A stretch of 64,000 nucleotides of DNA from a virus, in IMG/VR virus record IMGVR_UViG_3300045684_000013, positions 2,407 through 66,406 of that record; one strand, 5' to 3'. Positions 5,385 to 56,061 of the stretch are shown here, piece after piece. The notes below the pieces were generated by a model. That model did not search any database. It was not told where the DNA came from and worked only from the letters and a program-made list of their open reading frames with translations. The stretch's first letter is position 1. Each line of letters opens with the position of its first letter. The translations under genes and the position numbers were made by a program.

Positions 5385-5708
5385 TTAACGGGAAAGGACA
5401 CAATTGACAGTTCTGGCAGGGTGGTCATTGCCAAATGGCTTGTAGTCTTCAATGATTTCCATGGTGAAGCCCAATGCTGACACCTTGGCTGCAAATGTTT
5501 TCCACAGTCTTTCACTGTTGTTAAAGCGGATATACACTACATCCTGTGCATTGATTGCAGCATACATTTCAGGTCTTGTCTTCAGCGTCTGTGGCATGAA
5601 GCCAGCCTGAAGAAGATCAGCAGCACGGTGAACGGAAACGGTTGTGCCAATTGCGTGTGCTTTTGCAAGTTGGGTGATGGTGGCTGATGTTCTTTCGGGT
5701 GAAGTCAT
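5385..5708 (-). CDS. hypothetical protein, first gene of cassette copy 1
   Basis: Its ATG is the last codon of the repeated cassette. Confidence 0.7.
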   Translation of the reverse strand: MTSPERTSATITQLAKAHAIGTTVSVHRAADLLQAGFMPQTLKTRPEMYAAINAQDVVYIRFNNSERLWKTFAAKVSALGFTMEIIEDYKPFGNDHPARTVNCVLSR

Positions 5709-5830
5709 TTTGATGTTGTTGTGTCAAGCTTCATTGCCCAACACTTCAAAGATGCAAAAAGGTTTCAGACTTGCAAACATATTTGAAAATAGGTGCAAAA
5801 AAAAATGAAGCACCAGTCAGATGCTTCATT
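5706..5830 (-). promoter_or_regulatory. dispersed terminator-promoter-leader cassette, copy 1
   Basis: Reverse complement of TTTTCAAATATGTTTGCAAGTCTGAAACCTTTTTGCATCTTTGAAGTGTTGGGCAATGAAGCTTGACACAACAACATC; upstream hairpin 5804-5830 plus T-run. Confidence 0.9.
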
Positions 5831-5861
5831 CAGGCCTGATGTTGACCAGTGCTTGCAGGTG

Positions 5862-6194
5862 TCAGAATGATGGAAATGACTCATACTGGTTTTCACTTGA
5901 CCAGCGGTCAAAGGTGACAACCTGTGCTTCATCAAAGGCTTCAATGTATGCCTGAAGCACTTGCAGCAATTCATGGCCATCCTGCACGCGCAATTCTTCA
6001 CGCATAGTTGTCAGCACTGTTCTGGCATCCAAGTGACCACCTGATTGTGGGTGACTGGTCATTTTGTGGAGGCTGCCAAGGGCAGCTGCTGCCTTCTTCT
6101 TTACTGCAAGAATAACAATGGCAGCATCTTTCTTGGATGGCAGTGCCAATGGTTTCTGGCCAGCTGGCTGGCTGTTGTTGGTGTCTTCTTTCAT
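5862..6194 (-). CDS. hypothetical protein
   Basis: ORF coupled to the upstream gene. Confidence 0.6.
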   Translation of the reverse strand: MKEDTNNSQPAGQKPLALPSKKDAAIVILAVKKKAAAALGSLHKMTSHPQSGGHLDARTVLTTMREELRVQDGHELLQVLQAYIEAFDEAQVVTFDRWSSENQYESFPSF

Positions 6195-6751
6195 TTGCTT
6201 TTTGTTGTTGCATATAGCAGCCTTGCGGCTGCAAATACAGGGTGAATTTTGGACTTCATAGTGATATTTTCTGGAACCAAGGTGGCAAAGAATTCACCTT
6301 TGTCAGGACTTGGGCCAGTGATGATGATTTTTTGAAATGAACCTGATTTGTCAGGCGACTTGATGTGTGCCAAATGCAAATGCCAGATGCCTTCTTCAAT
6401 AGGAATCAGGTCATATTGAATTTGATTGAAAATAAGACTTGGCACTGCATCATAAGATGGCCAACCAGATGTGCTGACAATCACAGGCAGCCATTCAGAA
6501 CCAAGATTCATGGTCACTGTGAATACATCTGGCAATGGTTCACCTTCTTCAATGGCCACCTTCACTGTTTCATTTCTGTCGGTATAAGTCCTGCCATTAT
6601 CAAACAGGATTTCAATAGTCTTGCCAATCTTGGAAAGCCTGTCAATCCTTGCCACCTTTGAAATTGGCCAGCCATCGTCTTCTGTCAGATACAGGGCCAT
6701 TTTGTCACCTACCTTCAGCGCGTCTGCTTTCTTGTGGAGGAATAAAGACAT
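6191..6751 (-). CDS. hypothetical protein
   Basis: 186 aa ORF with genome-typical codon use. Confidence 0.65.
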   Translation of the reverse strand: MSLFLHKKADALKVGDKMALYLTEDDGWPISKVARIDRLSKIGKTIEILFDNGRTYTDRNETVKVAIEEGEPLPDVFTVTMNLGSEWLPVIVSTSGWPSYDAVPSLIFNQIQYDLIPIEEGIWHLHLAHIKSPDKSGSFQKIIITGPSPDKGEFFATLVPENITMKSKIHPVFAAARLLYATTKSK

Positions 6752-6810
6752 AATTCATTTTATTGATGTGATACAAGGCCCACAGAAGCCTTCTGTGGGC
6801 ACGAATTTAT

Positions 6811-7065
6811 TTATGATGCTTGGTGCTGCCCTTTGCCATTCGTTACAATGGGCAGCCTGCCACCAGCCTGCTTCAGGGTCAAACGCTTTTCAAGGTCTGC
6901 CAGCTGACTGAACCAGTCACCTTTGACCTTCATTGCAATATTGTGAACCATAAAAGAAAGGATCAGCAACAGCATTGGTGGTGTGTTTGGTGGACATTCT
7001 TCAATCACTCTATTCAGCGTGACTGCAAAGTTCGGATGCTTATCTGTGATCAGGTGCCAATTCAT
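6811..7065 (-). CDS. hypothetical protein
   Basis: Coupled to 7062..7265. Confidence 0.5.
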   Translation of the reverse strand: MNWHLITDKHPNFAVTLNRVIEECPPNTPPMLLLILSFMVHNIAMKVKGDWFSQLADLEKRLTLKQAGGRLPIVTNGKGQHQAS

Positions 7066-7265
7066 GCTGCTTCAGTTTTGTGCTGATGCCTTCCAGCCTT
7101 CAGCAGGTCTTTGATGGTGATGTTGCATGCATACGGCTGGCCAGCTGCTTCAAATGTATTCAGCAGCCTGTTGCTGGCAATGTGTGACAGCTGACACCAG
7201 TTGCAGTGTGCAACTGAATGTGTGCCAGCATCCAATAATTTTCTTCCTTCTTCTGATGGTGTCAT
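7062..7265 (-). CDS. hypothetical protein
   Basis: Small ORF in a tightly packed leftward operon. Confidence 0.5.
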   Translation of the reverse strand: MTPSEEGRKLLDAGTHSVAHCNWCQLSHIASNRLLNTFEAAGQPYACNITIKDLLKAGRHQHKTEAA

Positions 7266-7267
7266 GA

Positions 7268-7423
7268 TTATCTTTCAAGATTGTTCTTTTTCAAAAATCT
7301 GTCTATTGCCTTAATAATTCGCTGCCATTCAGTATCTGAATCACCACAGCCAATCATTGCTTCAAGGTTATTTGCGGCCTCTTTTATCATACGGATTTGA
7401 TATTTTGTGATTTCAACTTTCAT
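7268..7423 (-). CDS. small hypothetical protein
   Basis: Start MKVEITKYQ at 7423. Confidence 0.5.
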   Translation of the reverse strand: MKVEITKYQIRMIKEAANNLEAMIGCGDSDTEWQRIIKAIDRFLKKNNLER

Positions 7424-7469
7424 GATGCAATGTTGTTTCAATTGATATACGTTTTTTTTCTGCCAGATG

Positions 7470-8600
7470 TTAAAGGGCACCACATGCCTGACCTTCTGCA
7501 AAGGCACCAACTGGCAGCTGCCAGACAGATGAAGGCACCAGCACAGGTGTTGTGAATTCTTCTGTGGCCTGTTTCCACCAAAAGGCATCCACATTCATTG
7601 GTGTGCCCTTGGCTGCAAATTCAATGATGTCTGTTTTGCGTTTTAAGGTGAAGCCAAGTTTTTCTTCAGTCATGGCAATGTTCATAATCTTGGATTCATC
7701 ATATTTTGCAATGGTGGCAAATACATCAGGACCATTGAAAATGTAGGTCTGACAGCTGCAACGTGACCAGCCACAGAAATATGCAGGATGCGCCACCACA
7801 CCATGTGCCTTCATTTCATCCCACACCTGCTGTTCCGGCCAGTCAATGACAGCCCTGAACTGAATCACTTCACGGTTGAATTTTGGGCTGTCAGTGGCAT
7901 GTAATTCAGCTTTCAGATATTTTGCACGGTTGGCTGATTCTTCACGTCTTTCACCAGTCAGCACCAGCACCTGTGCATCTTTGGCAAACATCTTTCTGAT
8001 GACCGTTTTGCACACATCAATCTTCACCACACTGCTGCACCATCTTGATGCCAAGTCAGCTGCAATGGCTGGAAATTTGCCACGGGTGCTGCTGCCTGCA
8101 TTGGCAGCCACTTTGATGAATTCGCCACCTTCTTCAGCCTGATAAAAGACATCCTGAAGGCCTTCATTTTTCCGGTTGATTTCACGCTGTATGCCACCAG
8201 CCCTGAAGGAATAAAGCAAGGGCAGGCCAAAGGCCTTGGCAAAGGCTTCACAATAGCTGTCTGTTCCTTTCCAATCCCAAATGTTGCCACCTTTGCCATC
8301 CACCAAATGGTGCATCAGAACAACACGTGACATATCAATGCCACGGTTGATCAAATCAAGCACCATGGCAACAGAATCCTTTCCACCACTGAAACACACC
8401 ACAATGGCAGCATCAGTCTGGTGCAGCAGGTATTCAGCACGATCAATTGTATCTGTGCCAATGGCTGCCTTCAGGTCATGAATTTTCTGAAGCGTTTCAT
8501 TGGTTGCCGCCAAGTTGCCTGCTGTTGATTCTTCCTTTGCCTGCTTTCTTAGTGTGGCAAGCTGCTTGGTGTTGGTTCTGATGGTCTGAATTGATGTCAT
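7470..8600 (-). CDS. PAPS reductase-family (PP-loop) protein
   Basis: VVCFSGGKDS PP-loop, RWCS..VK, GERREES.NRA, HPAY..GWSRCSC motifs. Confidence 0.88.
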   Translation of the reverse strand: MTSIQTIRTNTKQLATLRKQAKEESTAGNLAATNETLQKIHDLKAAIGTDTIDRAEYLLHQTDAAIVVCFSGGKDSVAMVLDLINRGIDMSRVVLMHHLVDGKGGNIWDWKGTDSYCEAFAKAFGLPLLYSFRAGGIQREINRKNEGLQDVFYQAEEGGEFIKVAANAGSSTRGKFPAIAADLASRWCSSVVKIDVCKTVIRKMFAKDAQVLVLTGERREESANRAKYLKAELHATDSPKFNREVIQFRAVIDWPEQQVWDEMKAHGVVAHPAYFCGWSRCSCQTYIFNGPDVFATIAKYDESKIMNIAMTEEKLGFTLKRKTDIIEFAAKGTPMNVDAFWWKQATEEFTTPVLVPSSVWQLPVGAFAEGQACGAL

Positions 8601-8611
8601 GATTTGTTGTT

Positions 8612-8667
8612 ATTGATGTTGATGTTGTGGAGGAATGCAGGCCACCTGAAGGCAGCCTGCTGTGTGT
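8612..8667 (-). repeat. 56-bp intergenic hairpin-leader spacer, copy A
   Basis: 55/56 identical to 47148-47203. Confidence 0.9.
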
Positions 8668-8671
8668 TAGC

Positions 8672-8809
8672 TTATTTGCAAAGCTTAATGAAAGTCCAGC
8701 CCATTTCTTTTGCCAATGCTTTTGCTTCTTCAGTAGAACTGATATAGCTAACTTTGAATGTGCTGGTGAATCCGTTTGCATCTTTTTGTGAAAATTTTGC
8801 CCTTGTCAT
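8672..8809 (-). CDS. 45-aa protein, first gene of cassette copy 2
   Basis: MTRAKFSQKDANGF...KLCK*; its ATG directly follows the cassette leader. Confidence 0.65.
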   Translation of the reverse strand: MTRAKFSQKDANGFTSTFKVSYISSTEEAKALAKEMGWTFIKLCK

Positions 8810-8937
8810 GATGTTGATGTTGTTTTGTCAAGCTTCATTGCCCAACACTTCAAAGATGCAAAAAAGGTTTCACACTTGCAAGCATATTTGAAAATAAATG
8901 CAAAAAAAAGTGGCCAGCACTGTGCTGGCCACTTTTT
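8807..8937 (-). promoter_or_regulatory. dispersed cassette, copy 2
   Basis: Same core sequence; hairpin AAGTGGCCAGCAC..GCTGGCCACTT at 8908-8934. Confidence 0.9.
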
Positions 8938-9929: not shown

Positions 9930-10307
9930 TTATTTTTGGATCATGTTGAAGTATTCTGTCAGGCTGAAATTCACACCAACAATTGACGTGAAAACTTCTG
10001 CCATGCTGGTGCATTTTCGCATAAACACGCCAGCTGAACGGGAAGAATTGCAGATCATTTTCATTGTCAGGATTGTCACGCTTTCTGATTCTTCAGGCAT
10101 AACACCAGACATTTGAAAAAGCCTGCTGCTGACTTCATCAACCATGCCTGCCTGTGAATTTGTGCCACCAGAAACATTGATCAGGCTAATTTTCATTTTT
10201 CTTGCAATCCTGTATATTTCCAGTTTCAGTGAAATCAGTTCATCTGGCTGCATGCCTTCCAGCTGAAAGCCAAGCGTCAACACAAAAGCATGTTTGTTTT
10301 TATTCAT
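9930..10307 (-). CDS. hypothetical protein
   Basis: CAACATCAACATC leader before the ATG. Confidence 0.6.
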   Translation of the reverse strand: MNKNKHAFVLTLGFQLEGMQPDELISLKLEIYRIARKMKISLINVSGGTNSQAGMVDEVSSRLFQMSGVMPEESESVTILTMKMICNSSRSAGVFMRKCTSMAEVFTSIVGVNFSLTEYFNMIQK

Positions 10308-10379: not shown

Positions 10380-12593
10380 GTGGCCATGGCAAAGCGTGAA
10401 CAAATCACACCTGTTGGCACATCTGAAGCAATCCTGTCAATCATCTTGAATGCATCAGGCCAGCTAAATGATGCCCAACAGGCAGAGCAGCAAAGAATTT
10501 GGGAATGGGTGCAAAAAAAGCTGATGACTGGAAAGCTGGCATTGGACCTGAAAGAAAATGCAGATGGCACGCAAGGCATCAAGCCCACAGCTGCAAATGT
10601 AAAGAAAGTAAATGGCTTAATGAATCAGCTAAACATTGCGGCTGACCCTGACAGAATTAAGGATGCAGTCAAAACATACAATGAAGCAGCACAGCAAGCC
10701 AGCCAGACAAATCAAAAATACTACAAAAGCGAATTTGCAAGCTATGTTTTCAAGCCAGCTTTCAACATTCCAATTCAGAACCTGATTCAAACAACACTGG
10801 ATTCAACAACGCGCGGTCAATACACATCAGCCTTTGTCAATCCAATCAGGCAGACCATTTTCAAGCATGTTCAGACGGGTGCCAATTTTCAGACATTGGT
10901 TGATGGCCTTCAGTATCAGATTACAGGTATTTCACCAAACACGTCAAAAACTTGGGCCATTAGAAATGGCCTGCTTGAAAATTACCACCAGCTGAAAAGG
11001 CTGACACGTGACACCATGTTTCAGACATTGGCCAATGAAACAGATGCAGTGGCCAATGCACTTGGACCTGACACTGCATGGTATCAATACATTGGTGGAC
11101 TTGTGGAAGATAGCCGGAAAGAATGTATCAGAAGGCACAAATTGCGCTACTTCAGCAGGAAGGAAGTTGACAGCTGGAAGAAGCTGACCAAAAAGCAATG
11201 GCCTGAACAAATCCCCAACATTGAACCAATTGTGCAGCGTGGTGGCTGGAATTGCCTGCATGACTTACGGATTATATCGGTCAGGAGGGTGCCAGAAGAA
11301 CGGCTGAAGCAGTCATTGGCACAGGGCTTTATTGATCAGAAGCAATTTGATGAAGCCATGAAGGCCAAAGGATTTGACACCACGGCAAAGCCTGCACCAC
11401 CTGTGGCAAAGCCTGCACCACCTGTGGCAAAGCCTGCACCACCTGTGGCAAAGCCTGCACCACCTGTGGCAAAGCCTGCACCACCTGTAAGTAAAGCCGC
11501 ATCTGTGCCCGAAATTGACAGGGTGATTGACTTGAAATCTGAATTAGGTACAAAATCTAAAAATATACCAAAGGGTAGCAATGCTAAAATGGAAGCTTTA
11601 TTTAAAAAGCATGGAATTGCTTCTGAATTTGGTGAAGTGAGAAAGGGAAGGAGGGTTGAAAAAGACAGCTTTGATGGACTGCCAATATCTTCAATTGAGA
11701 AAATGATCAATACTGCCATATATGTTCAGAAAAAGTATGGCTATGTTGTCAGGATTGATCCAAGCGACATTGACAAAATAAAAAAGGCAGGAAACGGAAC
11801 AGCAAGCATTGCCCAATTTGATGGTTCATCAACTCAAAAACGTTTTACCTTTGGCAGAAGCACACACAGGAATGCAAACATGTCAGCGAATGGTGCAGGT
11901 GTCTTCATTTCTTCAAAATATGCGAAAGGCAGTTTTATTGAACAGATTGGCAGGAATAATTTTGAAGATGCAAGAAAACTGGCAGCAGTGGAGGCAAAGA
12001 AGGCAATGGTTACATGGCAGGAACTTCAGGACGAATTGACAAAAAGAAAAGAAAATGGTGAAAAACTTGCAGTTTGGGAGCGTAAAAATTTATTCAATTC
12101 AAAGGGTGCCATCAGGCAGCTTCAGAAAACCATTGACAACGCGAACAAACCAATAGAAGCGGGTGATTTTCAGCAATGGTCATTGTCAAGGGATTCAAGA
12201 GTGCTTAATGAAGATGCAACAAATGCAATCAGAAACACAACATTGCACGAATTTGGCCACGTGTTACATTATCAAGCGTTCGGAATGAGTGGAAGAAATG
12301 TGAATGAACAGCCATACAGGACAACTGCTGCTGTGCTTTCTGATTCAGATGCTTACAGGATGCGTAGAAGGTGGACAGATTTATATTCAAAATATGGAGA
12401 TAGCGAATGGACACGCACTTATTCAAAGTATGCATCAAAAATGGAAGTCGAATTGTTTGCAGAAACATTTTTGATGTATGACAGAAGGCCTGATTTGTTG
12501 CCAGCTGAAATCAGGGATTTTATGGATGAATTGTTTGAAATTCAGAGAAAAAGCATTCAATATTTCAAAGAAAATGAAATCAAATACAACTAA
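10380..12593 (+). CDS. MuF/gp7-like minor head protein with C-terminal HExxH metallopeptidase-like domain
   Basis: YIGGLVEDSRKEC and RGGWNCLH in the N-domain; LHEFGHVLH and SKYA...ELFAETF at the C-terminus; precedes scaffold and capsid. Confidence 0.8.
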   Translation: MAMAKREQITPVGTSEAILSIILNASGQLNDAQQAEQQRIWEWVQKKLMTGKLALDLKENADGTQGIKPTAANVKKVNGLMNQLNIAADPDRIKDAVKTYNEAAQQASQTNQKYYKSEFASYVFKPAFNIPIQNLIQTTLDSTTRGQYTSAFVNPIRQTIFKHVQTGANFQTLVDGLQYQITGISPNTSKTWAIRNGLLENYHQLKRLTRDTMFQTLANETDAVANALGPDTAWYQYIGGLVEDSRKECIRRHKLRYFSRKEVDSWKKLTKKQWPEQIPNIEPIVQRGGWNCLHDLRIISVRRVPEERLKQSLAQGFIDQKQFDEAMKAKGFDTTAKPAPPVAKPAPPVAKPAPPVAKPAPPVAKPAPPVSKAASVPEIDRVIDLKSELGTKSKNIPKGSNAKMEALFKKHGIASEFGEVRKGRRVEKDSFDGLPISSIEKMINTAIYVQKKYGYVVRIDPSDIDKIKKAGNGTASIAQFDGSSTQKRFTFGRSTHRNANMSANGAGVFISSKYAKGSFIEQIGRNNFEDARKLAAVEAKKAMVTWQELQDELTKRKENGEKLAVWERKNLFNSKGAIRQLQKTIDNANKPIEAGDFQQWSLSRDSRVLNEDATNAIRNTTLHEFGHVLHYQAFGMSGRNVNEQPYRTTAAVLSDSDAYRMRRRWTDLYSKYGDSEWTRTYSKYASKMEVELFAETFLMYDRRPDLLPAEIRDFMDELFEIQRKSIQYFKENEIKYN
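11384..11488 (+). repeat. 21-bp tandem repeat x5 (AKPAPPV linker)
   Basis: GGCAAAGCCTGCACCACCTGT repeated five times. Confidence 0.97.
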
Positions 12594-16486: not shown

Positions 16487-16521
16487 CTTTTTTTTCGTAA
16501 ATTGGCAAAAACAGAAAGAAT

Positions 16522-18941: not shown

Positions 18942-18952
18942 ACTTGCCATTT

Positions 18953-24853: not shown

Positions 24854-24990
24854 GGCTGGTCAGCGATGATCAGCCTTTTTTTTGCATTTATTTTCAAATA
24901 TGTTTGCAAGCCTGAAACCTTTTTTGCATCTTTGAAGTGTTGGGCAATGAAGCTTGGCAGTTCATTCACATCAAATACATCAAAAAAATG
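24854..24990 (+). promoter_or_regulatory. dispersed cassette, copy 3
   Basis: Hairpin GGCTGGTCA-GCGA-TGATCAGCC plus T-run, conserved core, ATG 24988. Confidence 0.9.
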
Positions 24991-25278
24991 GAAATCATTT
25001 TACAAATTATCATCAATGCCCTGCCTTGGATGCAAGCCAATTTTGAAAAAGAAAAAGCATCGTTCATGAAAAAGGAATTGGACGAAATGAAAAAGCTGTT
25101 CATTGATATTTCAGCCCTTGACAGTGAAGAAAAAGCCATCAAGTGGCTGGAATCAGAAGAAGCAAAAGAGATGAAAGCAGGTGGAAACCTTAGCCGGAAA
25201 ATTCAAATCAGCTTCATTCTTGTGAAATACAAGATTGCACAAAAAAAAGTCAGCCAATTGGTTGACTTTTTTTTGTGA
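24988..25278 (+). CDS. hypothetical protein, gene of cassette copy 3
   Basis: ATG at the end of the cassette leader. Confidence 0.65.
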   Translation: MEIILQIIINALPWMQANFEKEKASFMKKELDEMKKLFIDISALDSEEKAIKWLESEEAKEMKAGGNLSRKIQISFILVKYKIAQKKVSQLVDFFL

Positions 25279-42890: not shown

Positions 42891-42927
42891 ATTGAATTTT
42901 TCGTAAAATTTCAACTAAATTGTGAAC

Positions 42928-44822: not shown

Positions 44823-44971
44823 TTGATGTGATGTTGTTGGCCACAGGGTGATGCCTGTGGCCTTTTTCATTTTTTTGCATTTATTTTCAAATATGCTTGC
44901 AAGTATGAAACCTTTTTTGCATCTTTGAAGTGTTGGGCAATGAAGCTTGACGCAACAACATCAACATCATG
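44823..44971 (+). promoter_or_regulatory. dispersed cassette, copy 4
   Basis: GGCCACAGG-GTGATG-CCTGTGGCC terminator, core, ATG 44969. Confidence 0.92.
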
Positions 44972-46186
44972 AAATCTTTTAGCCAAACATCAGAAATCAC
45001 TAAGCAGTATTATATCAGCACAGGCATGAAACATTGCTTTTATACGCTGTGGTACTGGATGGTCACACCAGTAAAATCAAGCGAAGTGTATATCAAAAAC
45101 ATTTCGCTTGACCGTGAAAGCACGCTTGAATGGATTATTGAAACATTTGAAGACATCAGCAATAGAGAAGAAGCAGAAGCCATGATTGACATGGATGCAC
45201 CATGCAAGCCAGCTGACAGAATGTACACAATTGAAGGGCATGAAGCCATCTGGTTTGGCAAGCACAAGGGCACAGCTATTGTTGATTTTCCTGAAGATGA
45301 AACCACATACCTTTGCTGGCTGGTCAATGAAGCTGCCAAAGGTGGATATTGGAAGACATTGTCACCTGAAAAAGAATATATAAATTTTCGTGGCCAGCGA
45401 ATCACAGAAGAATATTGCGACATAGCTGACAAGCCATGGAAGAAAAAAATTGTCAGGGCTGCTGAACTGGAAGCCATCAGACGTGGTGCGGTTTATGTTT
45501 CTGGCAATCCTTGGAAGTTGGAAGATGAAAGCACTGTTTTGCTTTATGGCAGCCAGCTTGAAAAGCACATTGAAAAGGTGAACAAAGCACGTGAAATCAG
45601 AATGACCAGCAAGCATGTTGGTACAGTTGGTGAATCAGCTGACCTTGTTCTAACTGTCAACAATATCATCACAGGTGAAGGTGAATTTGGCACATGGAAC
45701 CTGTATGTGATGCAGGATGGCATTGGTAATGTATTCACCAAATTTGGCACCATTGGGTGGAAATTTGTTACCAATTGGGCTGAAAATGACTGGTCATTTG
45801 AAGTGAAAAAAGGCCACGTGCTAAAGCTGAATGCAGACATCAAAAATCATGACATTCGTGAAGGTGTGGCACAGACGCAAATTGGCAGAGTCAGGAAGCA
45901 AAAAGCTGACAAATCTTTTGCAGCACGTGCCAAGGCACATGATGCAGCATTTGAGGCATCAAAAAATGACAGGAAGATTGCAGCTATTGTTGAAAAAATA
46001 AAGGGCACCGGCATCAGCCATGATGAATTGGCTGTTGTGCTTGATGCTGCTGGCAATCCTGAAAAAGTGTATAAATTGGATGCAGTTGAAAAGGCCAATG
46101 AAAACAGGCTTGCTTTTCCTAGGTCAAACAGCCAGCCAATCAACTTTTTACTTGCCAGCAAATGGCTGAAGATAATTGGCAAATGA
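44969..46186 (+). CDS. hypothetical protein with FGKHKG motif and OB-fold-like region
   Basis: IWFGKHKG...YLCWL; SKHVGTVGE...GEFG. Confidence 0.7.
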   Translation: MKSFSQTSEITKQYYISTGMKHCFYTLWYWMVTPVKSSEVYIKNISLDRESTLEWIIETFEDISNREEAEAMIDMDAPCKPADRMYTIEGHEAIWFGKHKGTAIVDFPEDETTYLCWLVNEAAKGGYWKTLSPEKEYINFRGQRITEEYCDIADKPWKKKIVRAAELEAIRRGAVYVSGNPWKLEDESTVLLYGSQLEKHIEKVNKAREIRMTSKHVGTVGESADLVLTVNNIITGEGEFGTWNLYVMQDGIGNVFTKFGTIGWKFVTNWAENDWSFEVKKGHVLKLNADIKNHDIREGVAQTQIGRVRKQKADKSFAARAKAHDAAFEASKNDRKIAAIVEKIKGTGISHDELAVVLDAAGNPEKVYKLDAVEKANENRLAFPRSNSQPINFLLASKWLKIIGK

Positions 46187-46689
46187 TTAATAACAGGGCA
46201 GGCCAGCATTCATCTGGCCTGCCACAACATCAGATAAGAATGGTATCTCAAAAGACGATCACACAAGTCACATTTAATGCCACAAAAGGTGAATTCAGGG
46301 CCACTGATTTTGCTGGAAGGCAAACAGAAAAGCTTTTCATTTTCCACAGAAAAAGATTGCGTTTGTCAGCTGTTGGCCAAATTGAAAGGTTTGGCAAACA
46401 AGGTTTTCTTTGGCAGTCTTTTTGCTGGCCCGAACAAATCGAAACTGTCAGGGCAGGAATGATTGAACTTGCAGCCGCAAACCTTGCCAGCCAAATGCTC
46501 ACTGTTCACAGGCTTTCAGAAGGCCTAAAGAAGCACGCTGTTGACACTTCAGGTGATTTGGTGTCTGACATCATGTTTGCCATTAAGGATTGCGGAGAAT
46601 GCAAGCATGAAGGTGTCAGCTGGAATGATGGTGAATTGTCAGAATTGGTGGCAGACGTGATTGCAGGCAATGTGAAAAAATATCAATAA
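46183..46689 (+). CDS. hypothetical protein
   Basis: ATGA coupling. Confidence 0.55.
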   Translation: MINNRAGQHSSGLPQHQIRMVSQKTITQVTFNATKGEFRATDFAGRQTEKLFIFHRKRLRLSAVGQIERFGKQGFLWQSFCWPEQIETVRAGMIELAAANLASQMLTVHRLSEGLKKHAVDTSGDLVSDIMFAIKDCGECKHEGVSWNDGELSELVADVIAGNVKKYQ

Positions 46690-46696: not shown

Positions 46697-46844
46697 TTGA
46701 TGTATGTTGTTGGCCACAGGGTGATGCCTGTGGCCTTTTTCATTTTTTTGCATTTATTTTCAAATATGCTTGCAAGTGTGAAACCTTTTTTGCATCTTTG
46801 AAGTGTTGGGCAATGAAGCTTGACACAACAACATCAACATCATG
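46697..46844 (+). promoter_or_regulatory. dispersed cassette, copy 5
   Basis: Near-identical to copy 4 over about 140 bp. Confidence 0.92.
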
Positions 46845-47141
46845 ACAAAATCAGAATTCAAAGCACTGCAAAAAGACATCAATATCAGCCTGGATGGAAA
46901 GAAAAACATCCAGCCATACAGGAAGGCAAAAACCAGAATTGAAGAAGCGCAGCAGACACACAATGCGCTGAAAATGCAGTATATCAAAGAAGGCAAATTC
47001 ATCAACAGGCTGAATGCCATGCATGATACAGAATATGACTTGGAAAGCCTTTGGCACCATGTTGACAGCAGGGAAGGGCAAAGAAGCTTCACAGGTGCAG
47101 ACTACAACACCCTTGCACTGATGATGCTGAACATTGACTAA
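46842..47141 (+). CDS. hypothetical protein, first gene of copy 5
   Basis: ATG at the cassette end. Confidence 0.7.
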   Translation: MTKSEFKALQKDINISLDGKKNIQPYRKAKTRIEEAQQTHNALKMQYIKEGKFINRLNAMHDTEYDLESLWHHVDSREGQRSFTGADYNTLALMMLNID

Positions 47142-47147
47142 CCATTG

Positions 47148-47203
47148 ACACACAGCAGGCTGCCTTCAGGCGGCCTGCATTCCTCCACAACATCAACATC
47201 AAT
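47148..47203 (+). repeat. 56-bp intergenic hairpin-leader spacer, copy B
   Basis: ACACACAGCAGGCTGCCTTCAGGCGGCCTGCATTCCTCCACAACATCAACATCAAT. Confidence 0.9.
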
Positions 47204-47206
47204 CAA

Positions 47207-47701
47207 ATGAAAGTCAGAATTCAGAAAAGAAACGGGAAGAAGGCCCAAAAGCAGGTGAAGCAAATCTGCATCAACACAGTCATCAATGGCAACCAGTATT
47301 TCAAGGCCACATCAGCCAACCTGACACTTTTGCTGGCCATGGCAGATGCCATTGCAGGTGAATGGCTTCAGCTGCAAATTGATGGCACACTGACAGCCAG
47401 TGGCAAAAAGATTGGCACCACTGTCATTGAAGTCATGGTTGATGGTGTGTGGCATGATGTCAGCCCTGTGCAGCTTGAATTGCATGCACTGGTGGCCAGC
47501 AAGCTGGCCAGCCTGTCTGACACCATCATTGAAGGATTTGTGCAGTCAGGGCCAATTGCAGGCTTCACAATGCCTTCAATGTCTGGTCATGTGCTTGGCC
47601 TTGAATCAGTAAGCTGGTTTGATAGGCAATACAACACCACAGAACACAAGAATTTGATGGAAGCCAATATGCACCTGAATGAAATGTTGGTGCCAGATTA
47701 A
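47207..47701 (+). CDS. hypothetical protein
   Basis: Follows spacer B. Confidence 0.65.
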   Translation: MKVRIQKRNGKKAQKQVKQICINTVINGNQYFKATSANLTLLLAMADAIAGEWLQLQIDGTLTASGKKIGTTVIEVMVDGVWHDVSPVQLELHALVASKLASLSDTIIEGFVQSGPIAGFTMPSMSGHVLGLESVSWFDRQYNTTEHKNLMEANMHLNEMLVPD

Positions 47702-47739
47702 TCAGTCATTTTTTGCAAAAACGCAAAACATTCAAGATC

Positions 47740-48048
47740 ATGACATTTGAAGAATACCAGAAAGAAGAAGAAGCAATTGAGGCTGAAGCATTAAGAGCAA
47801 AAAGAAAGCTGCTTCATTCGTTTGCCATCAAAAACCAGAAGTATAAAGTGGGTGACATACTGATGTGGAAAATGGCAAACATTGTCATCAGGGTAGAAAA
47901 AGTGACGTTTGGTGCTTGGAGGCTAAGGAATGGCATACCTTCAACAGCTTTTTACCATGGTACGCGATTAAGGAAAGACCTGAAAACATACACAAAGAAG
48001 ACAGTAGGCCATATTGCACAGCCAAACGTGTCAGCAAAGTTGAACTAA
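47740..48048 (+). CDS. hypothetical protein
   Basis: Start MTFEEYQ. Confidence 0.6.
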   Translation: MTFEEYQKEEEAIEAEALRAKRKLLHSFAIKNQKYKVGDILMWKMANIVIRVEKVTFGAWRLRNGIPSTAFYHGTRLRKDLKTYTKKTVGHIAQPNVSAKLN

Positions 48049-48056
48049 AATATATC

Positions 48057-48206
48057 TTGATGTATGTTGTTGGCCACAGGGTGATGCCTGTGGCCTTTTT
48101 CATTTTTTTTTTGCATTTATTTTCAAATATGTTTGCAAGTCTGAAACCTTTTTTGCATCTTTGAAGTGTTGGGCAACGATGCCTGACAAACAACATCATC
48201 AAAATG
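48057..48206 (+). promoter_or_regulatory. dispersed cassette, copy 6
   Basis: Same terminator and core; leader variant GGGCAACGATGCCTGACA. Confidence 0.92.
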
Positions 48207-48407
48207 GAATCCATCAGCAATAAAAAACTTGAAGTAGGAATGATTGTCAATACTTTTGACCTGCATGCAGGTGCCTACGTCAACACCACAATCACAAAGA
48301 TTGGATCACAGCGGAAAAGAAATGGTATCTGGTGCGTTGAAATATTTTTTCATGAAATCGGTCAATCAGCTTGGCTGATGACATCAGGAAAGACAATGGC
48401 GCTATAA
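48204..48407 (+). CDS. hypothetical protein, sole gene of copy 6
   Basis: ATG at the cassette end; followed by a terminator. Confidence 0.65.
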   Translation: MESISNKKLEVGMIVNTFDLHAGAYVNTTITKIGSQRKRNGIWCVEIFFHEIGQSAWLMTSGKTMAL

Positions 48408-49896: not shown

Positions 49897-51260
49897 TGCC
49901 TGACATCAACATTCTGCCAGCTTATGCAGAAATGCATACAACTGCAATGAAATATATCAGGTTGCAGGGCAGTGCTGGTTCTGGAAAGTCAGAAGCCTGC
50001 ACCAGATTTGTGATTGCAGCGGCACTTCAGCATGAAAGAAGGAAGGTTCTGGTTATGCGTAAGGTGGCCAGAACATTACGAACATCAGTTTTTGCCACTT
50101 TTCTTGATGTGCTGGAAGAATTGGGCCTGTCAAGTCATTTTTATGTGACCACATCACCAATGGAAATGACAAACAAATTCAATGGCAGCAAAATATTATT
50201 CATGGGTGTTGATGACCCTGAAAAATTGAAGTCTATACGTGGTATCAGTCTTGTTTTTCTGGAAGAATTTACAGAATTCACAAAAAAGGATTTCAGGCAA
50301 ATCAGGCTAAGACTAAGGACGCCAGACAATGCGCCGTTTCATGATCAGGTACTGATGGCCTACAATCCAATCAGCAAAAAAACTTTTGTCTATAAAGATA
50401 TTCATGAAGGTGGCATGCTGGAAGGGCATGAATTATTCATCAAGACCACATATAAAGACAACCCATACCTTCCTGCCACATACAGGCAGGAATTGAATGA
50501 ATTGGCTGAATCAAGTGACCCTGCATACGCCAAAATATATGCTGATGGTGAATTTGCTGACCTGATTGAAGGGCTGATATACAAGCAATACAATGTGACA
50601 CCTGATTTCAAGTTTTTCAGGGCACCAGTTTATGGCCTTGACTTTGGATTCAGCAGTGACCAGACAGCTTTGGTGAAGGTTGGTGAAGTGCCACAGGCTG
50701 GCAGGAAGCCTGACAAGCTGTTTGCAGATGAAGTGTTTTATGAATTGAACCTGACAGCCAATGACATCACAGCCCTGATGCATGAATACAGGGTGCCCAA
50801 AAACGCAAAAATATATGCTGACCACAGGCCTGAAATCATTGAAGAAATTCAGCGTGCTGGCTGGTCAGGCTGCGTGAAGGCGGTAAAAGGTGCAGGCAGT
50901 ATCAATTCAGGCATCATGTTGGTGCAGGGTTATGAATTGAACTTTACAGAAAACAGTGTGAACCTTCAGCGTGAAGCAGAATTATATAAATGGAAGGAAG
51001 ACAGGGATGGCGAACCATTGCCAGAACCAATTGATAAATTCAATCATGGGCTTGATGCCATCAGAATGGCAGTGACATCAATGAAGGGAAAGAAGAACAG
51101 AAAGCCAGCGTCACAGCCAATTCCACAGGCAAGGGCTGGCCAGCCAGCCAGCAGCAGTGCAGCCAGCCAGCAGCAGGCCAGCAGGGCAGCAGGCAGGCAG
51201 CCTGATGTGTCAGGGATTGAAGCAGAAATTGAAGCACTGAAAAAGCGTTTATTGTCATGA
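49896..51260 (+). CDS. terL: terminase large subunit (PBSX family)
   Basis: GSAGSGKS, GVDDPEKLKS, LEE, YNP, GLDFGF, NHGLDAIR. Confidence 0.95.
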   Translation: MPDINILPAYAEMHTTAMKYIRLQGSAGSGKSEACTRFVIAAALQHERRKVLVMRKVARTLRTSVFATFLDVLEELGLSSHFYVTTSPMEMTNKFNGSKILFMGVDDPEKLKSIRGISLVFLEEFTEFTKKDFRQIRLRLRTPDNAPFHDQVLMAYNPISKKTFVYKDIHEGGMLEGHELFIKTTYKDNPYLPATYRQELNELAESSDPAYAKIYADGEFADLIEGLIYKQYNVTPDFKFFRAPVYGLDFGFSSDQTALVKVGEVPQAGRKPDKLFADEVFYELNLTANDITALMHEYRVPKNAKIYADHRPEIIEEIQRAGWSGCVKAVKGAGSINSGIMLVQGYELNFTENSVNLQREAELYKWKEDRDGEPLPEPIDKFNHGLDAIRMAVTSMKGKKNRKPASQPIPQARAGQPASSSAASQQQASRAAGRQPDVSGIEAEIEALKKRLLS

Positions 51261-51990: not shown

Positions 51991-52148
51991 AAAAAATTCT
52001 TTCCTGTTTGTTTCTTCATTTTGCTTGCTAAGGTGGTCACTGAATGGTGGCCACTTTTTTGCATGTTGCATTGGCTTCATGGCCAGCCTTTCTGCAAAAG
52101 TTGCTGGTTCGCTCATTACTGAACAAACGCAATGGATGGTGAAAGGCT

Positions 52149-52250
52149 TTTTTTACGCTTATTTTCAAATGTGCTTGCAAGTATGAAACTTTTTTTTGCA
52201 TCTTTGAAGTGTTGGGCAATGAAGCTTGACACAACAACATCATCAAAATG
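52149..52250 (+). promoter_or_regulatory. dispersed cassette, copy 7
   Basis: Conserved core and leader, ATG 52248. Confidence 0.9.
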
Positions 52251-52685
52251 AAAAATTCACAGACCAGCAACAGCATTGAAGACATTTTTGGCAGCGTTAT
52301 TCATGAAGATTCTTTCAACACGCGCATTCAGTCAGGTGAATACATGGATGTCATTGATACCATCAGCCTGAACCAGCTGGCCAAAGAAGCAGGCATCAAG
52401 TTTGCAGTTGCTGTTGATGCTGGCATGTTCAGTGCCATCAAAAACTTCAGCCCTGCATTATGCCAGTCAGTTTCAGGGCGCGTTTGGGATTTGTTCACCA
52501 TGTTCACCAATGCAGCCAAAGGCAGGATCAGTGCAAAGGTTGAACAGCTTGAATGTGGTCAGGCAATGACTTTTGATTTTATCATGACACAAGGCAGATC
52601 AAAATGGGTTACAGTTAAGGCTATTGTTGGCCCCAAAGGGCCACATGATGCTGCACCATGCATCAGCTTTCATTTTGTACGCTAA
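52248..52685 (+). CDS. hypothetical protein, first gene of copy 7
   Basis: IFGSVIH...AKEAGIKFAVA...QSVSGRVWDL. Confidence 0.7.
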   Translation: MKNSQTSNSIEDIFGSVIHEDSFNTRIQSGEYMDVIDTISLNQLAKEAGIKFAVAVDAGMFSAIKNFSPALCQSVSGRVWDLFTMFTNAAKGRISAKVEQLECGQAMTFDFIMTQGRSKWVTVKAIVGPKGPHDAAPCISFHFVR

Positions 52686-52758
52686 TCATCAGGCAGGCTG
52701 TTAATCAGGCAGGCTGTTAATCAGGCAGCCTGCCTTTTCATATATTACATCAATCATC

Positions 52759-53993: not shown

Positions 53994-54396
53994 GCCAGCC
54001 ACATTCTTTTGGTTATTTGCAACAATCATGGCAGTTGTGTTCAGTGGCTGGCTTTCAACAGGACTGGCAATTGAATTTGACAACTGGTTTTTTTGGTTTT
54101 GTGTTGTTCAGTCTGCTTCTGTGGCTGCTTTATGGGCTAATGATTATTGCAAGATGATTGTCTGTCAGAAGCCCACAGAAGCCACAGGCTGCAATGCATC
54201 CACTGCTGGTGTGTTTGTGTCATGCAGGCCATCAGAAGTCAGCTGGCACCAGTATGTGGCACCACAGGCCACAGTGCTTGGCGGAATTGATGCAGCAGCT
54301 TTTGCAGTTGCAGTTGATATGCTGGCGCATGCTGCCAGAAAGGCAAATCAGGAATATACAAATCAAACAAAAAGCACACATGAAGGCAATAATTGA
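53986..54396 (+). CDS. membrane protein
   Basis: Two hydrophobic segments. Confidence 0.5.
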   Translation: MYKPATFFWLFATIMAVVFSGWLSTGLAIEFDNWFFWFCVVQSASVAALWANDYCKMIVCQKPTEATGCNASTAGVFVSCRPSEVSWHQYVAPQATVLGGIDAAAFAVAVDMLAHAARKANQEYTNQTKSTHEGNN

Positions 54397-54805
54397 AGGC
54401 AGTGCGCAATATTTCAGCTGGAAGCTTCAGCATGCTAATGGCTTTTCATTGAAGGCAAGTGACATATTTAACACAGAAATGGCAGCTATTGAGCAAGCAG
54501 CTGGCTGGCTGATTGACTTGCATCTGCATGAAGTAATTCCATTGCTGAATGCTTCAGGCATACAAATTGACGTCAGGGTGCCACACAGTCAACCTGAACA
54601 ACCTGAACAGCCTGAACAGCAGACTACACCAGAAGAAAAATGCAATGCACTAAGAACAGCCACACTGCTGGCAGGGCTTGACATTCCTGAAGAAGTGCTG
54701 AAATATATGACAGGCATCATTCAGCTTTACATGAAAAAAGGTGATGACATGAACCTGAAAGAAGTGAAAAAAATATTCAAAGAATCATTTGATGCAGCTG
54801 GCTGA
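54380..54805 (+). CDS. hypothetical protein
   Basis: Coupled ORF; QPE repeats. Confidence 0.55.
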   Translation: MKAIIEGSAQYFSWKLQHANGFSLKASDIFNTEMAAIEQAAGWLIDLHLHEVIPLLNASGIQIDVRVPHSQPEQPEQPEQQTTPEEKCNALRTATLLAGLDIPEEVLKYMTGIIQLYMKKGDDMNLKEVKKIFKESFDAAG

Positions 54806-54980
54806 TTTGATAGTAAATTGCTTGGCAGTTGTTTTGATTGTCAACAGTGCAGAAAAAATGGCACATTGGGATGATGCACAGCAAATTGGTGTCATTCTTC
54901 CTTTTCCGTGGCTGGCATTGCTTGAATTGCTGATTGGTACTGCACTTGTTGTCATTTCTGCAATAAATACAAAATATTGA
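54792..54980 (+). CDS. small membrane protein
   Basis: Two hydrophobic stretches. Confidence 0.45.
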   Translation: MQLADLIVNCLAVVLIVNSAEKMAHWDDAQQIGVILPFPWLALLELLIGTALVVISAINTKY

Positions 54981-54983
54981 ATT

Positions 54984-55826
54984 ATGTTTGATGCACTTGC
55001 AATGATTGTTTCAAAAGTGCCTTTCAGGTCAAAGGAAAGAAAGGCACTTGATGAAGCACTAAAAGAATTTCCATACCATGTGGCATTCATGATTGGCAGA
55101 CAAAAATGGTACTGTTATGATGAACTGTCGCACATGTCTGTTGGCAGGTCTGGCCAAGTCAATGCAATTGCAGCGCAGGCACAGTTGAATATCACACCAG
55201 ATGACCTGAAGTATCTTTCTGGCATCATTCGTGACATGCTGGATTTGCCACACACTGAAATGAAGTCAATGCAGGCAGAAGCTGGCAGAATACTTCAGGC
55301 AGGATTGCAGGCAACGCCACCAGACCAGCTGAAGACACTGTTGAAAAGGATGGCCACGGTTGACATGAAACCTGCAAGGGTGGCTGAAAGTCTGCTGACA
55401 GAACTTTCAAAAAGAATGGAACTGTTGGCACATGAAGAATTTTTGTACAGGCTGGCAGCTGTCATGTTTTGGTGTGACGGGGAAAATCCACGGCTGATGT
55501 TGGAGCCAGAACAGATCAACAAAAAAGTTGAATTTTTAAAAAAAAAGGGGGAAAATATACTCTTACGGCTGCTGATGACACCAGTGGCAAACATACTGTA
55601 TCATCTCAATCAATCAGATCAAGATTCAGTCACATCATTGATGATGGCACTGACCATTCAGAAGCCCTTCCAAAAGTTTTCAGATATGATACTAACACAG
55701 GAAAATCTGAAATCTTCAGTATCTGGCACCACACCCAAAGACACCTTGACAGAAGCAACATGGCCACATTCAGACAAGCAGGAAGAAGTCAGGCAGAATT
55801 TGAAAGGTGGAACATCAGACCTTTGA
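54984..55826 (+). CDS. tail assembly chaperone (G-like), 0-frame product
   Basis: Upstream of the tape measure; contains slippery run TTTTTAAAAAAAAAGGGGG. Confidence 0.65.
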   Translation: MFDALAMIVSKVPFRSKERKALDEALKEFPYHVAFMIGRQKWYCYDELSHMSVGRSGQVNAIAAQAQLNITPDDLKYLSGIIRDMLDLPHTEMKSMQAEAGRILQAGLQATPPDQLKTLLKRMATVDMKPARVAESLLTELSKRMELLAHEEFLYRLAAVMFWCDGENPRLMLEPEQINKKVEFLKKKGENILLRLLMTPVANILYHLNQSDQDSVTSLMMALTIQKPFQKFSDMILTQENLKSSVSGTTPKDTLTEATWPHSDKQEEVRQNLKGGTSDL

Positions 55827-55936
55827 TTTCATTTTATGAATTCTTGGCCAAGCTGAAACAGCTGAATGACAATGACAGTGCCAGAAAGAAAATGGAAAGT
55901 GATTTGAAGCAGCAAAGGAAGCAGGCAAAAGGCTGA
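55541..55936 (+). CDS. -1 frameshift extension (GT-like) of the tail chaperone
   Basis: A AAA AAG at 55541-55547; -1 frame closed at TGA 55529 and open to TGA 55934-55936. Confidence 0.75.
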   Translation, partial: KKGGKYTLTAADDTSGKHTVSSQSIRSRFSHIIDDGTDHSEALPKVFRYDTNTGKSEIFSIWHHTQRHLDRSNMATFRQAGRSQAEFERWNIRPLISFYEFLAKLKQLNDNDSARKKMESDLKQQRKQAKG

Positions 55937-56061
55937 CCAGCAATGGCCAGCTTTTTCATTTATTTTCAACTTTTTTCAAATATGCTTGCAAGTCTGAAAC
56001 CTTTTTTGCATCTTTGGAGTGTTGGGCAATGATGCCTGACAAACAACATCAACATCAAATG
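55929..56061 (+). promoter_or_regulatory. dispersed cassette, copy 8
   Basis: Hairpin plus T-run, core, leader variant GGGCAATGATGCCTGACA, ATG 56059. Confidence 0.9.

Follow-up and report, generated by a model that had tools for sequence, protein, structure and literature searches.

Eight dispersed copies of one composite repeat were found in a 64,000-nucleotide (nt) stretch of viral DNA, hereafter the window, which comprises bases 2407-66406 of the 66,406-nt virus record IMGVR_UViG_3300045684_000013 (CheckV completeness ~50%). All eight copies are intergenic, are co-directional with the next gene, and end exactly at the ATG of that gene, and the repeats are a genuine, non-random, and well-structured feature of this genome. 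Judged from the order of their parts, they probably form a family of host-type, and probably early, promoter cassettes with insulation, structure at the mRNA 5' end, and a leader that is independent of the Shine-Dalgarno (SD) sequence. The basis of this whole reading is one uncultivated genome fragment. Positions are counted from the first base of the window, (-) marks the minus strand, and the copies are numbered 1 to 8 in the order of their positions.

Anatomy of the repeated cassette

The copies share a 22-nt core, GCATCTTTGRAGTGTTGGGCAA, which occurs with 0 mismatches at 5734(-), 8838(-), 24926, 44919, 46792, 48155, 52198, and 56008, i.e., twice on the minus strand and six times on the plus strand. 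The entire 66,406-nt record holds these same eight copies and no extra ones, and the core did not appear in any of 100 dinucleotide-preserving shuffles of the window. Alignment of the eight loci with their flanks gave 76 invariant columns, 72 of which fall in positions 98-190 of copy 1 (93 positions), in the order T-run, TTTTCAAAT...TTGCAAG..TGAAAC..GCATCTTTG..AGTGTTGGGCAA, followed by a CAACATC leader. A preliminary description of this DNA, made from its letters alone, had proposed eight copies with a degenerate consensus and a composite terminator-promoter-leader anatomy; all of its ranges and its consensus fit the alignment, and the anatomy holds on both the alignment and hairpin scans. Pairwise identity of the core among the eight copies is 78-98%. 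For copies 4 and 5, identity is 99% across 142 nt, and for copies 2 and 5 it is 96% across 116 nt. The sites that do vary are the -27/-28 spacer positions, the hairpin loop, wobble-compatible sites of the stem, and the first base of the -33 element. Since variation is concentrated at these sites, it appears that selection, and not only recent copying, holds the rest invariant.

Each cassette opens with what resembles an intrinsic terminator. A GC-rich hairpin followed by a T-run lies directly upstream and is clear in copies 1-6 and 8 (seven of eight), and in copies 4, 5, and 6 this hairpin is identical (GGCCACAGGGTGATGCCTGTGGCC). Copy 7 has only a weak hairpin directly upstream, as had been noted before; a better hairpin with a T-run, read by eye and not flagged by the terminator scan, is located ~130 nt above it, at 52033-52060. 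The terminator is followed by an AT-rich stretch, GCATTTATTTTCAAATAT, and in the consensus TTTTTTTGCATTTATTTTCAAATAT stands ahead of the -33 TTG.

The promoter-like segment has the consensus (C/T)TTGCAAG-NN-TGAAAC-C-T5-7-G-CATCTTTG. Its -33 element is TTTG in copies 1, 3, and 6 and CTTG in the other five, with the TTG falling at -35 to -33, and the spacer between TTG and CATCTTTG measures 19 nt in copy 1, 20 nt in six copies, and 21 nt in copy 7. A T6 tract spans -19 to -14, and the predicted +1 is the G of GTTGGGC, two bases inside the 5' arm of the hairpin discussed below. A TAnnTTTG box at -12 to -5 is reported for Flavobacterium psychrophilum (PMC9723704), and in the account given for F. 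johnsoniae, T-12, A-11, T-8, T-7, T-6, and G-5 of the -7 box are nearly invariant, G is avoided at -10/-9, and AT-rich motifs occur near -18 and -28 (PMC6847099). CATCTTTG matches five of these six nearly invariant positions and has T at -10 and C at -9. Like the Bacteroidota promoters in these accounts, the cassettes have TTTG in the box, A at -11, no G at -10/-9, and T-rich sequence at approximately -18, and all eight carry a TTG 19-21 nt ahead of the box (PMC6847099; PMC9723704). The cassettes are in line with the earlier proposal of a Bacteroidota -33/-7 promoter with C at the first position of the box. A scan with the sigma-70 consensus flagged none of the five copies located in 44-57.5 kb. 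Of all sequences in the window, the one that best matches a canonical Bacteroidota-type promoter is TTG-N17-TATATTTG at 1465-1495(+), in the intergenic region before the gene at 1602-2147.

Downstream of the box lies an inverted repeat, AAGTGTTGGGCAATGAAGCTTGACAC, a feature that is absent from the preliminary description. In all eight copies it is predicted to fold as RNA into a stem of 8-9 bp with a 6-nt loop, which would sit at, or within 2 nt of, the predicted RNA 5' end. RNAalifold returned 8 consensus pairs with none of the 64 cells broken, and all four substitutions in stem columns keep the pairing: U-A to U-G in copy 3, U-A to U-G in a different column in copy 4, and G-U to G-C in copies 6 and 8. 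The remaining differences of copies 6 and 8 are confined to the hairpin loop. Because three of the consensus pairs are G-U, the structure can form on the sense strand only, and a role in RNA is favored over a DNA palindrome. A stem-loop at the extreme 5' end of an mRNA is a known stabilizer in several bacteria. In the cassettes, the predicted stem-loop is probably such an mRNA stabilizer, with a handle for a regulator as the alternative.

The leader that follows is CA-rich (e.g., AACAACATCAACATC), contains no SD sequence, and abuts the ATG. Like the Bacteroidota genes described in the published accounts, the downstream genes lack an SD and have A at -3, -6, and -12 (PMC6847099; PMC9723704). 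ACATCA is present within 25 nt 5' of 21 of the 76 gene starts in the window: all eight genes behind cassettes, further genes in the leftward cluster (4.5-10.3 kb), the genes at 47207 and 52759, and several genes of the replication module (25344, 29234, 32411, 35928, 39320, and 41496). It is missing from all 14 genes located between 10.4 and 24.8 kb, as well as from the TerL operon and from the genes after the tape measure, and the genes there carry A-rich leaders such as AAAAATCATGGC. The ACATC-rich leader at the ATG, as proposed earlier, is therefore real in the cassettes but not specific to them; from its distribution, it is a general feature of the non-structural genes of this phage. The cassette cargo shares this translation signal with the non-structural genes, though three of the cassettes sit among morphogenesis genes. 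Hairpin and leader also occur together without a promoter, as a 51-nt element (CAGGCTGCC-TTCA-GGYGGCCTG and then CATTCCTCCACAACATCAACATCAAT) found at 8612-8662(-) and 47153-47203(+) with 0 mismatches to the pattern. Both elements lie between gene 1 and gene 2 of a cassette unit, namely those of copy 2 and copy 5.

An additional element, TTGATGT(G)ATGTTGTTG, is the inverted form of the CA-rich leader and is located directly 5' of the shared terminator in copies 4, 5, and 6. In predicted folds of the read-through RNA of these three copies, this anti-leader pairs with the leader to 2-4 nt before the AUG, with z-scores of -5.0 to -6.3 and none of 200 shuffles folding as well. The leader is free in the folds of copies 1 and 8, and in those of copies 2, 3, and 7 there is short local pairing near the AUG only. 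According to these folds, anti-leader pairing could silence translation from read-through transcripts. A similar sequence, GATGTTGATGTT (28760-28771), occurs with a terminator after the T5orf172 gene, at 28756-28806.

In the proposed mechanism, the intrinsic terminator would halt incoming transcription, its T-run merging into the AT-rich upstream stretch, and the promoter (C/T)TTG-N19-21-CATCTTTG, of the -33 TTG / -7 TAnnTTTG type, would then fire with a start ~5 nt past the box. The 8-9 bp stem-loop at the RNA 5' end would stabilize the mRNA or serve a regulator, and the unstructured, CA-rich, SD-less leader would load the ribosome at the ATG. Each cassette would drive one ORFan or a short ORFan operon, and the role of the family would be the host-polymerase-dependent, probably early, expression of accessory genes independently of the replication, packaging, and tail operons. 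The copies may be kept alike by exchange among them and by selection acting at almost all positions. As repeats of 100-140 nt, the cassettes would be likely substrates of homologous recombination, through which the genes between them could be deleted, duplicated, or swapped.

The type of host can be approached through the genes of the window at large. SD cores (GGAG, GAGG, or AGGA at -18 to -4) precede 2 of the 76 genes, compared to a background of 5.6%. Upstream of the starts, A is enriched at -3 (47/76) and -11 (52/76), as well as at -12, -14, -9, and -6, and the genes match the upstream A pattern that is described for Bacteroidetes (PMC6847099). The host most likely has transcription and translation of the "Bacteroidota type." The label is kept at this level, rather than at a named taxon, because TerL gives no host and because the TAnnTTTG box is also mentioned for green sulfur bacteria (in a preprint).

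Possible exchange between copies and likeness to known repeats

Several patterns among the copies are mosaic. When the informative sites of the ~110-column core were paired, all four gametes were present in 13 of the 21 pairs. The terminator and anti-leader of copy 6 are those of copies 4 and 5, while its hairpin variant (GATGCCTG) is the one found in copy 8. The cassette is common to copies 2 and 5, as is the 51-nt hairpin-plus-leader element, around first genes that are unrelated (45 and 99 amino acids [aa], respectively), with identity stopping seven bases into the open reading frame (ORF). In addition, the phage has genes for a Sak4-like annealase and for a Holliday-junction-resolvase-like protein. 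These mosaic signs fit exchange between copies, while recurrent mutation together with selection could give the same patterns.

An independent assembly, the Logan contigs of run X1, has 0 differences in the unique sequence between copies, and its contigs break at the repeats. Of the six loose ends listed for this run, three were matched by eye to sequence flanking copies 1 and 3 and to the leader of the gene at 9930-10307. A joint of 47203 to 48104 was given no weight, its shorter side having 30 letters at 90% likeness and possibly stemming from the copy 2 locus. The longest record of run X1 is 133,731 nt, near the ~133 kb implied by the CheckV value of 50%, and this record might belong to the phage.

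Exact-pattern scans of viral_contigs and metagenome_contigs for the cassette motif returned no occurrence. The one match in genome_contigs, in a metagenome-assembled genome of Bacteroidales, was rejected as chance: it is GC-rich, apparently coding, and without shared flanks, and ~0.5 matches were expected by chance. Megablast of 24.5 kb of the window against phages gave no match. Searches of viral_contigs and metagenome_contigs for the TerL locus reached at most 36% identity over the whole length, with two short end fragments at 41-42%, and scanning of seven distant TerL loci for dispersed repeats showed no comparable cassette family. A contig obtained as a distant TerL relative (L099) carries, at 18754-19908, a CRISPR-like array of ~17 repeats with the unit ATTTCAATTCCTTAAAGGTGCGATTAAAAG and a spacing of 65-67 nt, which is unrelated to the cassettes. 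A single closer relative emerged by protein among 5.8 billion clusters, with a TerL of 66% identity on a 71,774-nt contig (the next best being 43%). The 405-aa cargo protein of copy 4 has one homologue, at 49% identity on a metagenome contig of 71,774 nt, and the two are presumed to lie on one and the same contig because both reported contigs have that length. The cargo of copy 7, which lies 1 kb from TerL, was not found on the 71,774-nt contig by a search that needs shared 5-residue words, the extent of that contig being not known; this may be a weak hint of differential cargo.

The closest architectural counterpart is found in the promoter-early stem-loop repeats (PeSLs) of T4-type phages, which are described as repeated intergenic elements made of a stem-loop terminator, an AT-rich stretch, and an early promoter of host consensus (PMC2839356; PMC4122927). 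PeSLs are tied to ORFans in hyperplastic regions and are reported to mediate indels and mini-circles (Arbiol et al., 2010, PMC2839356; Comeau et al., 2014, PMC4122927). The likeness drawn in the preliminary description is justified with regard to architecture, as far as that of PeSLs is set out in PMC2839356: the cassettes likewise are intergenic repeats that join a stem-loop terminator (in seven of eight copies), an AT-rich stretch, and a predicted promoter that resembles the host primary-sigma type, they attach to ORFans between conserved modules, and the homology between copies offers sites of exchange. Unlike PeSLs, whose promoters equal or approach the E. coli sigma-70 early consensus, the cassettes have a predicted promoter of the Bacteroidota -33/-7 type, and the conserved block runs ~45 nt into the transcript, through the 5' stem-loop and the CA-rich, SD-less leader to the ATG. 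The phage itself is not T4-like, as its TerL is a member of the PBSX family and none of the PHROG matches pointed to a T4-type gene. Furthermore, there are only eight copies in 66 kb, and recombination, cargo turnover, and mini-circles have been shown for PeSLs, whereas the cassettes are known from the sequence of one genome.

The morons of lambdoid and other temperate phages, in the work of Hendrix and colleagues, reportedly each have a separate promoter, unrelated to those of other morons, and are active in the repressed prophage to the benefit of the lysogen. In structure, four units of this phage (copies 3, 6, 7, and 8) fit the definition of morons in that each is a promoter, gene, and terminator inserted between core genes or operons. 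Unlike morons, all units of this phage use one common promoter-leader module, and the window has no sign of lysogeny. The start-associated and extended start-associated sequences (SAS/ESAS) of Cluster K mycobacteriophages (Pope et al., 2011, PMC3203893) are similar in being conserved sequences that adjoin the start codon in part of the non-structural genes, in a single orientation and frequently behind an imperfect inverted repeat, and in being attached to genes of different families. The SAS, as described there, is a 13-bp sequence, GGGATAGGAGCCC, with an SD core, located 3-7 bp before start codons (PMC3203893). The leader in this phage, on the other hand, is a CA repeat, CAACATCAACATC, without SD, which in the cassettes is fused to promoter and terminator, and the two sequences are unrelated. 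A literature search did not find such cassettes in Bacteroidota phages or crAss-like phages, and a description in print is still possible.

A role of the repeats in recombination, as "plug-in" modules, is plausible from their sequence but lies on the doubtful side. Its fullest version is rather unlikely: a PeSL-like plug-in would have arisen independently of T4-type phages, in a phage whose host is SD-less and of the Bacteroidota type, the Sak4-like annealase would swap, duplicate, or delete accessory genes at the module boundaries, and the anti-leader of copies 4-6 would silence read-through translation. Under this version, one module of 100-140 nt would give any ORF termination, transcription, protection of the mRNA 5' end, and SD-independent translation, and in copies 4-6 the anti-leader pairing would have the consequence that the cargo is made from its own promoter only. 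If the cassettes both express and shuffle accessory ORFans, the PeSL strategy would not be peculiar to T4-type phages, and an unrelated phage would have reached a convergent solution with a different promoter grammar. The cassette would be a compact natural part (~130 nt, with insulator, promoter, 5' hairpin, and leader) for SD-less hosts, for which few such parts have been characterized. The ORFan products of the eight cassette-marked units are the natural first candidates in screens for host takeover or counter-defense.

Alternative explanations

A number of observations weigh against the cassettes being exchangeable host-type promoter modules. Unlike the F. johnsoniae promoters, in which T is nearly invariant at -12, the cassettes have C at this position in all eight copies; their flanks and spacer are invariant as well. 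Conservation of the spacer (TGAAAC and T-run) and of ~25 nt past the box exceeds the needs of a primary sigma factor, which suggests either that a further factor is involved or that the copies are simply recent. Double compensatory changes are absent from the hairpin, and its single-sequence z-scores are modest, between -0.6 and -3.2, with 1-56 of 200 shuffles folding as well. The TerL is of the PBSX type, and the cultured phages closest to it (at most 39% identity) have hosts such as Helicobacter, Bacillus, and Listeria. As to exchange, four-gamete incompatibility among eight short sequences can also be explained by recurrent mutation, and no recombinant junction between copies was seen in the contigs of run X1, an assembly in which rare variants are dropped. 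The 405-aa cargo of copy 4 is conserved (49%) in the only relative (TerL 66%), so at least that cargo is not fast-turning. Lastly, the only public run found to contain the sequence, X1, consists of DNA in the form of contigs; promoter activity, transcription start site, and timing, along with hairpin function and recombination, are what we infer from the arrangement of the repeats.

The most serious alternative, though an improbable one, is that the cassettes are promoters for a phage-directed polymerase (a phage sigma factor or activator, a modified host RNA polymerase, or a phage RNA polymerase) and act in the middle or late phase, with the long invariant sequence serving as the site of the factor. 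Such a factor would agree with conservation well past the -33/-7 boxes, with the invariant TGAAAC-C-T6 spacer, and with the unvarying C in a box whose host-type form has a nearly invariant T. TGAAAC-N-T-run also recurs outside the cassettes, after an A/T-run and CGTATAT motif, at 7435-7451(-), 25297-25313, 32367-32383, and 41441-41457. However, the host-type box is matched at five of six positions and with the correct spacing, and the genes driven are small ORFans, a kind that is usually expressed early. Neither a sigma factor, an RNA polymerase, nor a transcription regulator was found among 58 window proteins scanned with PHROGs or Pfam, which is weak evidence, as most of these proteins are ORFans.

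The motif after which this submotif recurs belongs to a second promoter-like family, in which an A/T-run is followed by CGTA[AT]A[AT] (7445-7451(-), 16496-16502, 25297-25303, 32367-32373, 41441-41447, and 42902-42908). These six sites are just 5' of co-oriented genes, including the start of the replication module, and in four cases TGAAAC and a T-run stand 4-5 nt downstream, the same submotif as in the cassette spacer. Unannotated or intergenic sequence accounts for 13% of the window and holds nine of the 16 occurrences of the motif. The family may represent a middle or late promoter class.

According to a second and decidedly improbable alternative, the block mainly serves regulatory binding and not promoter strength, either as a DNA operator of a phage repressor (compare the stoperators of Cluster A mycobacteriophages) or, in its 5' hairpin and leader, as the target of a translational repressor or RNA-binding protein, which would create a post-transcriptional regulon (compare the targets of T4 RegA and the SAS/ESAS of Cluster K). 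A site in DNA would be in keeping with the 8-bp palindrome CTTGCAAG in the -33 region of five of the eight copies, but for the hairpin part the three G-U pairs argue against a DNA palindrome. A site in RNA would be in keeping with the presence of the hairpin in all eight copies with pairing-preserving substitutions, with the promoterless hairpin-plus-leader units at 8612-8662(-) and 47153-47203, and with the uneven use of the CA-rich leader (21 of 76 genes overall and none of 14 in the 10.4-24.8 kb block). No protein emerged as a candidate binder, and regulatory binding could hold alongside the promoter reading instead of competing with it.

That the copies are selfish or neutral dispersed repeats (like miniature inverted-repeat transposable elements, or homing-associated) or an assembly artefact, with no regulatory role, can hardly be correct despite the 99% identity of copies 4 and 5 and the T5orf172 (GIY-YIG-like) gene at 28126-28755 of the window, as every copy is intergenic, co-oriented, and ends exactly at an ATG, variation spares the positions of the motifs, neither terminal inverted repeats nor target duplications are present, and the Logan contigs of run X1 agree between the copies (0 differences) and break at the repeats as true repeats would.

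Cargo genes and genome setting

The first two cassettes are located in a leftward cluster of small genes. Copy 1 (5709..5831, minus strand) consists of a terminator hairpin at 5803-5831 with a T-run, a predicted promoter with -33 TTTG (TTG 5776-5774), 19-nt spacer, -7 box CATCTTTG at 5754-5747, and +1 at ~5742, and a predicted 5' stem-loop (~5744-5721, minus strand) with the CA-rich leader, up to the ATG at 5708. Its unit (4584..5708, minus strand) comprises ORFans of 107 aa (5385-5708), 92 aa (5080-5358), and possibly a further 92 aa (4584-4862). Copy 2 (8810..8936, minus strand) has its terminator hairpin at 8906-8936 with a T-run, -33 TTG at 8881-8879, a 20-nt spacer, -7 box at 8858-8851, predicted +1 at ~8846, predicted 5' stem-loop at ~8847-8825 (minus strand), and a leader to the ATG at 8809. 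The real first gene of its unit (5862..8809, minus strand) is the 45-aa ORF at 8672-8809(-), not a longer overlapping ORF. The second, at 7470-8600(-), encodes a PAPS-reductase-like protein (phrog_424, E-value 4.9e-26) and is the only cassette-driven gene with a named family. Small ORFs continue down to 5862, and the unit ends at the terminator of copy 1.

Copy 3 (24854..24987, plus strand) lies between an unannotated block, in which PHROGs and Pfam gave no match at 10.4-24.8 kb, and the replication module. It has a terminator hairpin at 24854-24875 with a T-run, -33 TTTG (TTG 24904-24906), a 20-nt spacer, -7 box at 24927-24934, predicted +1 at ~24939, predicted 5' stem-loop at ~24938-24960 (plus strand), and a longer leader to the ATG at 24988. 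The unit (24988..25278, plus strand) is a single 96-aa ORFan, with a hairpin and T-run overlapping its 3' end and then the CGTATAT motif.

Copies 4-6 form a 3.4-kb array on the plus strand, between the resolvase-like region of the replication/recombination module and the packaging operon. In copy 4 (44823..44968), the anti-leader (~44824-44838) and terminator (44839-44862) are followed by -33 TTG at 44897-44899, -7 box at 44920-44927, predicted +1 at ~44932, 5' stem-loop at 44930-44953, and the leader to the ATG at 44969; its unit (44969..46689) encodes the 405-aa protein and a 175-aa ORFan. Copy 5 (46697..46841) has its anti-leader at 46698-46711, terminator at 46712-46735, -33 TTG at 46770-46772, -7 box at 46793-46800, predicted +1 at ~46805, 5' stem-loop at 46803-46826, and ATG at 46842. 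The unit that follows (46842..48048) contains a 99-aa ORFan, the hairpin-plus-leader element at 47153-47203, a 164-aa ORFan, and a 102-aa ORF. Copy 6 (48057..48203) has the anti-leader at 48058-48071, terminator at 48072-48095, -33 TTTG (TTG 48133-48135), -7 box at 48156-48163, predicted +1 at ~48168, and ATG at 48204. Its unit (48204..48407) is a single 67-aa ORFan, after which come a hairpin with a T-run, TATATTG, and the operon that includes TerL.

The last two cassettes, also on the plus strand, are located ~1 kb after TerL and directly before the tape measure, respectively. Copy 7 (52149..52247), with no strong hairpin directly upstream, has -33 TTG at 52175-52177, a 21-nt spacer, -7 box at 52199-52206, predicted +1 at ~52211, 5' stem-loop at 52209-52232, and ATG at 52248; the unit (52248..52685) is a single gene for a 145-aa protein with a terminator at 52707-52735. 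Copy 8 (55927..56058) has a terminator hairpin at ~55927-55955, -33 TTG at 55986-55988, -7 box at 56009-56016, predicted +1 at ~56021, 5' stem-loop at ~56020-56042, and a leader to the ATG at 56059. The unit (56059..56589) is a single acidic ORFan of 176 aa (isoelectric point 5.1), with a terminator at 56612-56644 before the tape-measure gene. Copies 3, 6, 7, and 8 thus head single-gene units with their own terminators (found by scan for copies 7 and 8, read from the sequence for copies 3 and 6), just 5' of larger operons and with a TATATT-type motif between.

The genes downstream of the cassettes had been described as unrelated and mostly of unknown kind, and this is what was found. The 13 cargo proteins of the eight units have no similarity to one another (best E-value 0.25), and nearly all are ORFans. 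Apart from the PAPS-reductase-like protein, no product of a cassette unit could be placed in a family or has more than one homologue among billions of proteins. None of 10 cargo proteins reaches the curated cut-off in Pfam, and PADLOC gave nothing for nine of 10, with one weak match. In PHROGs, where the query for copy 2 was the longer overlapping ORF and not the 45-aa ORF, the 405-aa protein matched families of unknown function only, and there was one other weak match. A single homologue was found for the 145-aa protein of copy 7 (66% identity, on a 1,680-nt contig), and the fold of this 145-aa protein resembles DUF6573 (ESM Atlas, TM 0.71-0.76), which is a lead only. For the 176-aa protein of copy 8, only the self-match was found among 1.84 billion representatives, a search in which a relative of >50% identity would hide in its own cluster, and the ESM Atlas gave no usable match. 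A role of the cargo in host takeover or anti-defense is a guess based on size, position, and orphan status.

With regard to the wider setting, TerL (49896-51260) matches phrog_3717 (E-value 1.4e-57; PBSX family) and the tape measure (ORF 56630-61522) matches phrog_28 (E-value 1.8e-25). The replication/recombination module includes a helicase (30642-32357), the Sak4-like annealase (32411-34144), a methyltransferase-like protein (36951-37730), a primase-like protein (39320-41434), and the Holliday-junction-resolvase-like protein (43641-44198). The preliminary description had placed the islands among late operons, between portal and MuF, after TerL, and between the tail chaperone and the tape measure. 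Copies 6, 7, and 8 do lie among morphogenesis genes, with TerL and the tape measure confirmed, but the cassette at 24.9 kb (copy 3) follows an unannotated 599-aa ORF and not TerL, and neither PHROGs nor Pfam identified a portal, MuF, or tail chaperone. No integrase, repressor, or other sign of lysogeny is present in the window of this ~50% complete record. Searches of the window for tRNAs and, at gathering scores, for Rfam families gave no match.

Two genes inside the replication module may be homing-endonuclease-like: a T5orf172-domain protein at 28126-28755(+) (PF10544, 26.6 bits against a cut-off of 20) and a weak, below-cut-off match to GIY-YIG at 29234-29839(+) (E-value 0.0092). Tandem repeats occur in coding regions, namely units of 21 nt at 11363-11509 (in a 735-aa ORF), a 150-nt duplication with 99% identity at 36427-36726, units of 39-42 nt at 41532-41691 (gene 41496-42086), and units of 66 nt at 63675-63981 (in an ORF open at the window end). 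A related stretch of 37 nt is located at 44699-44735.

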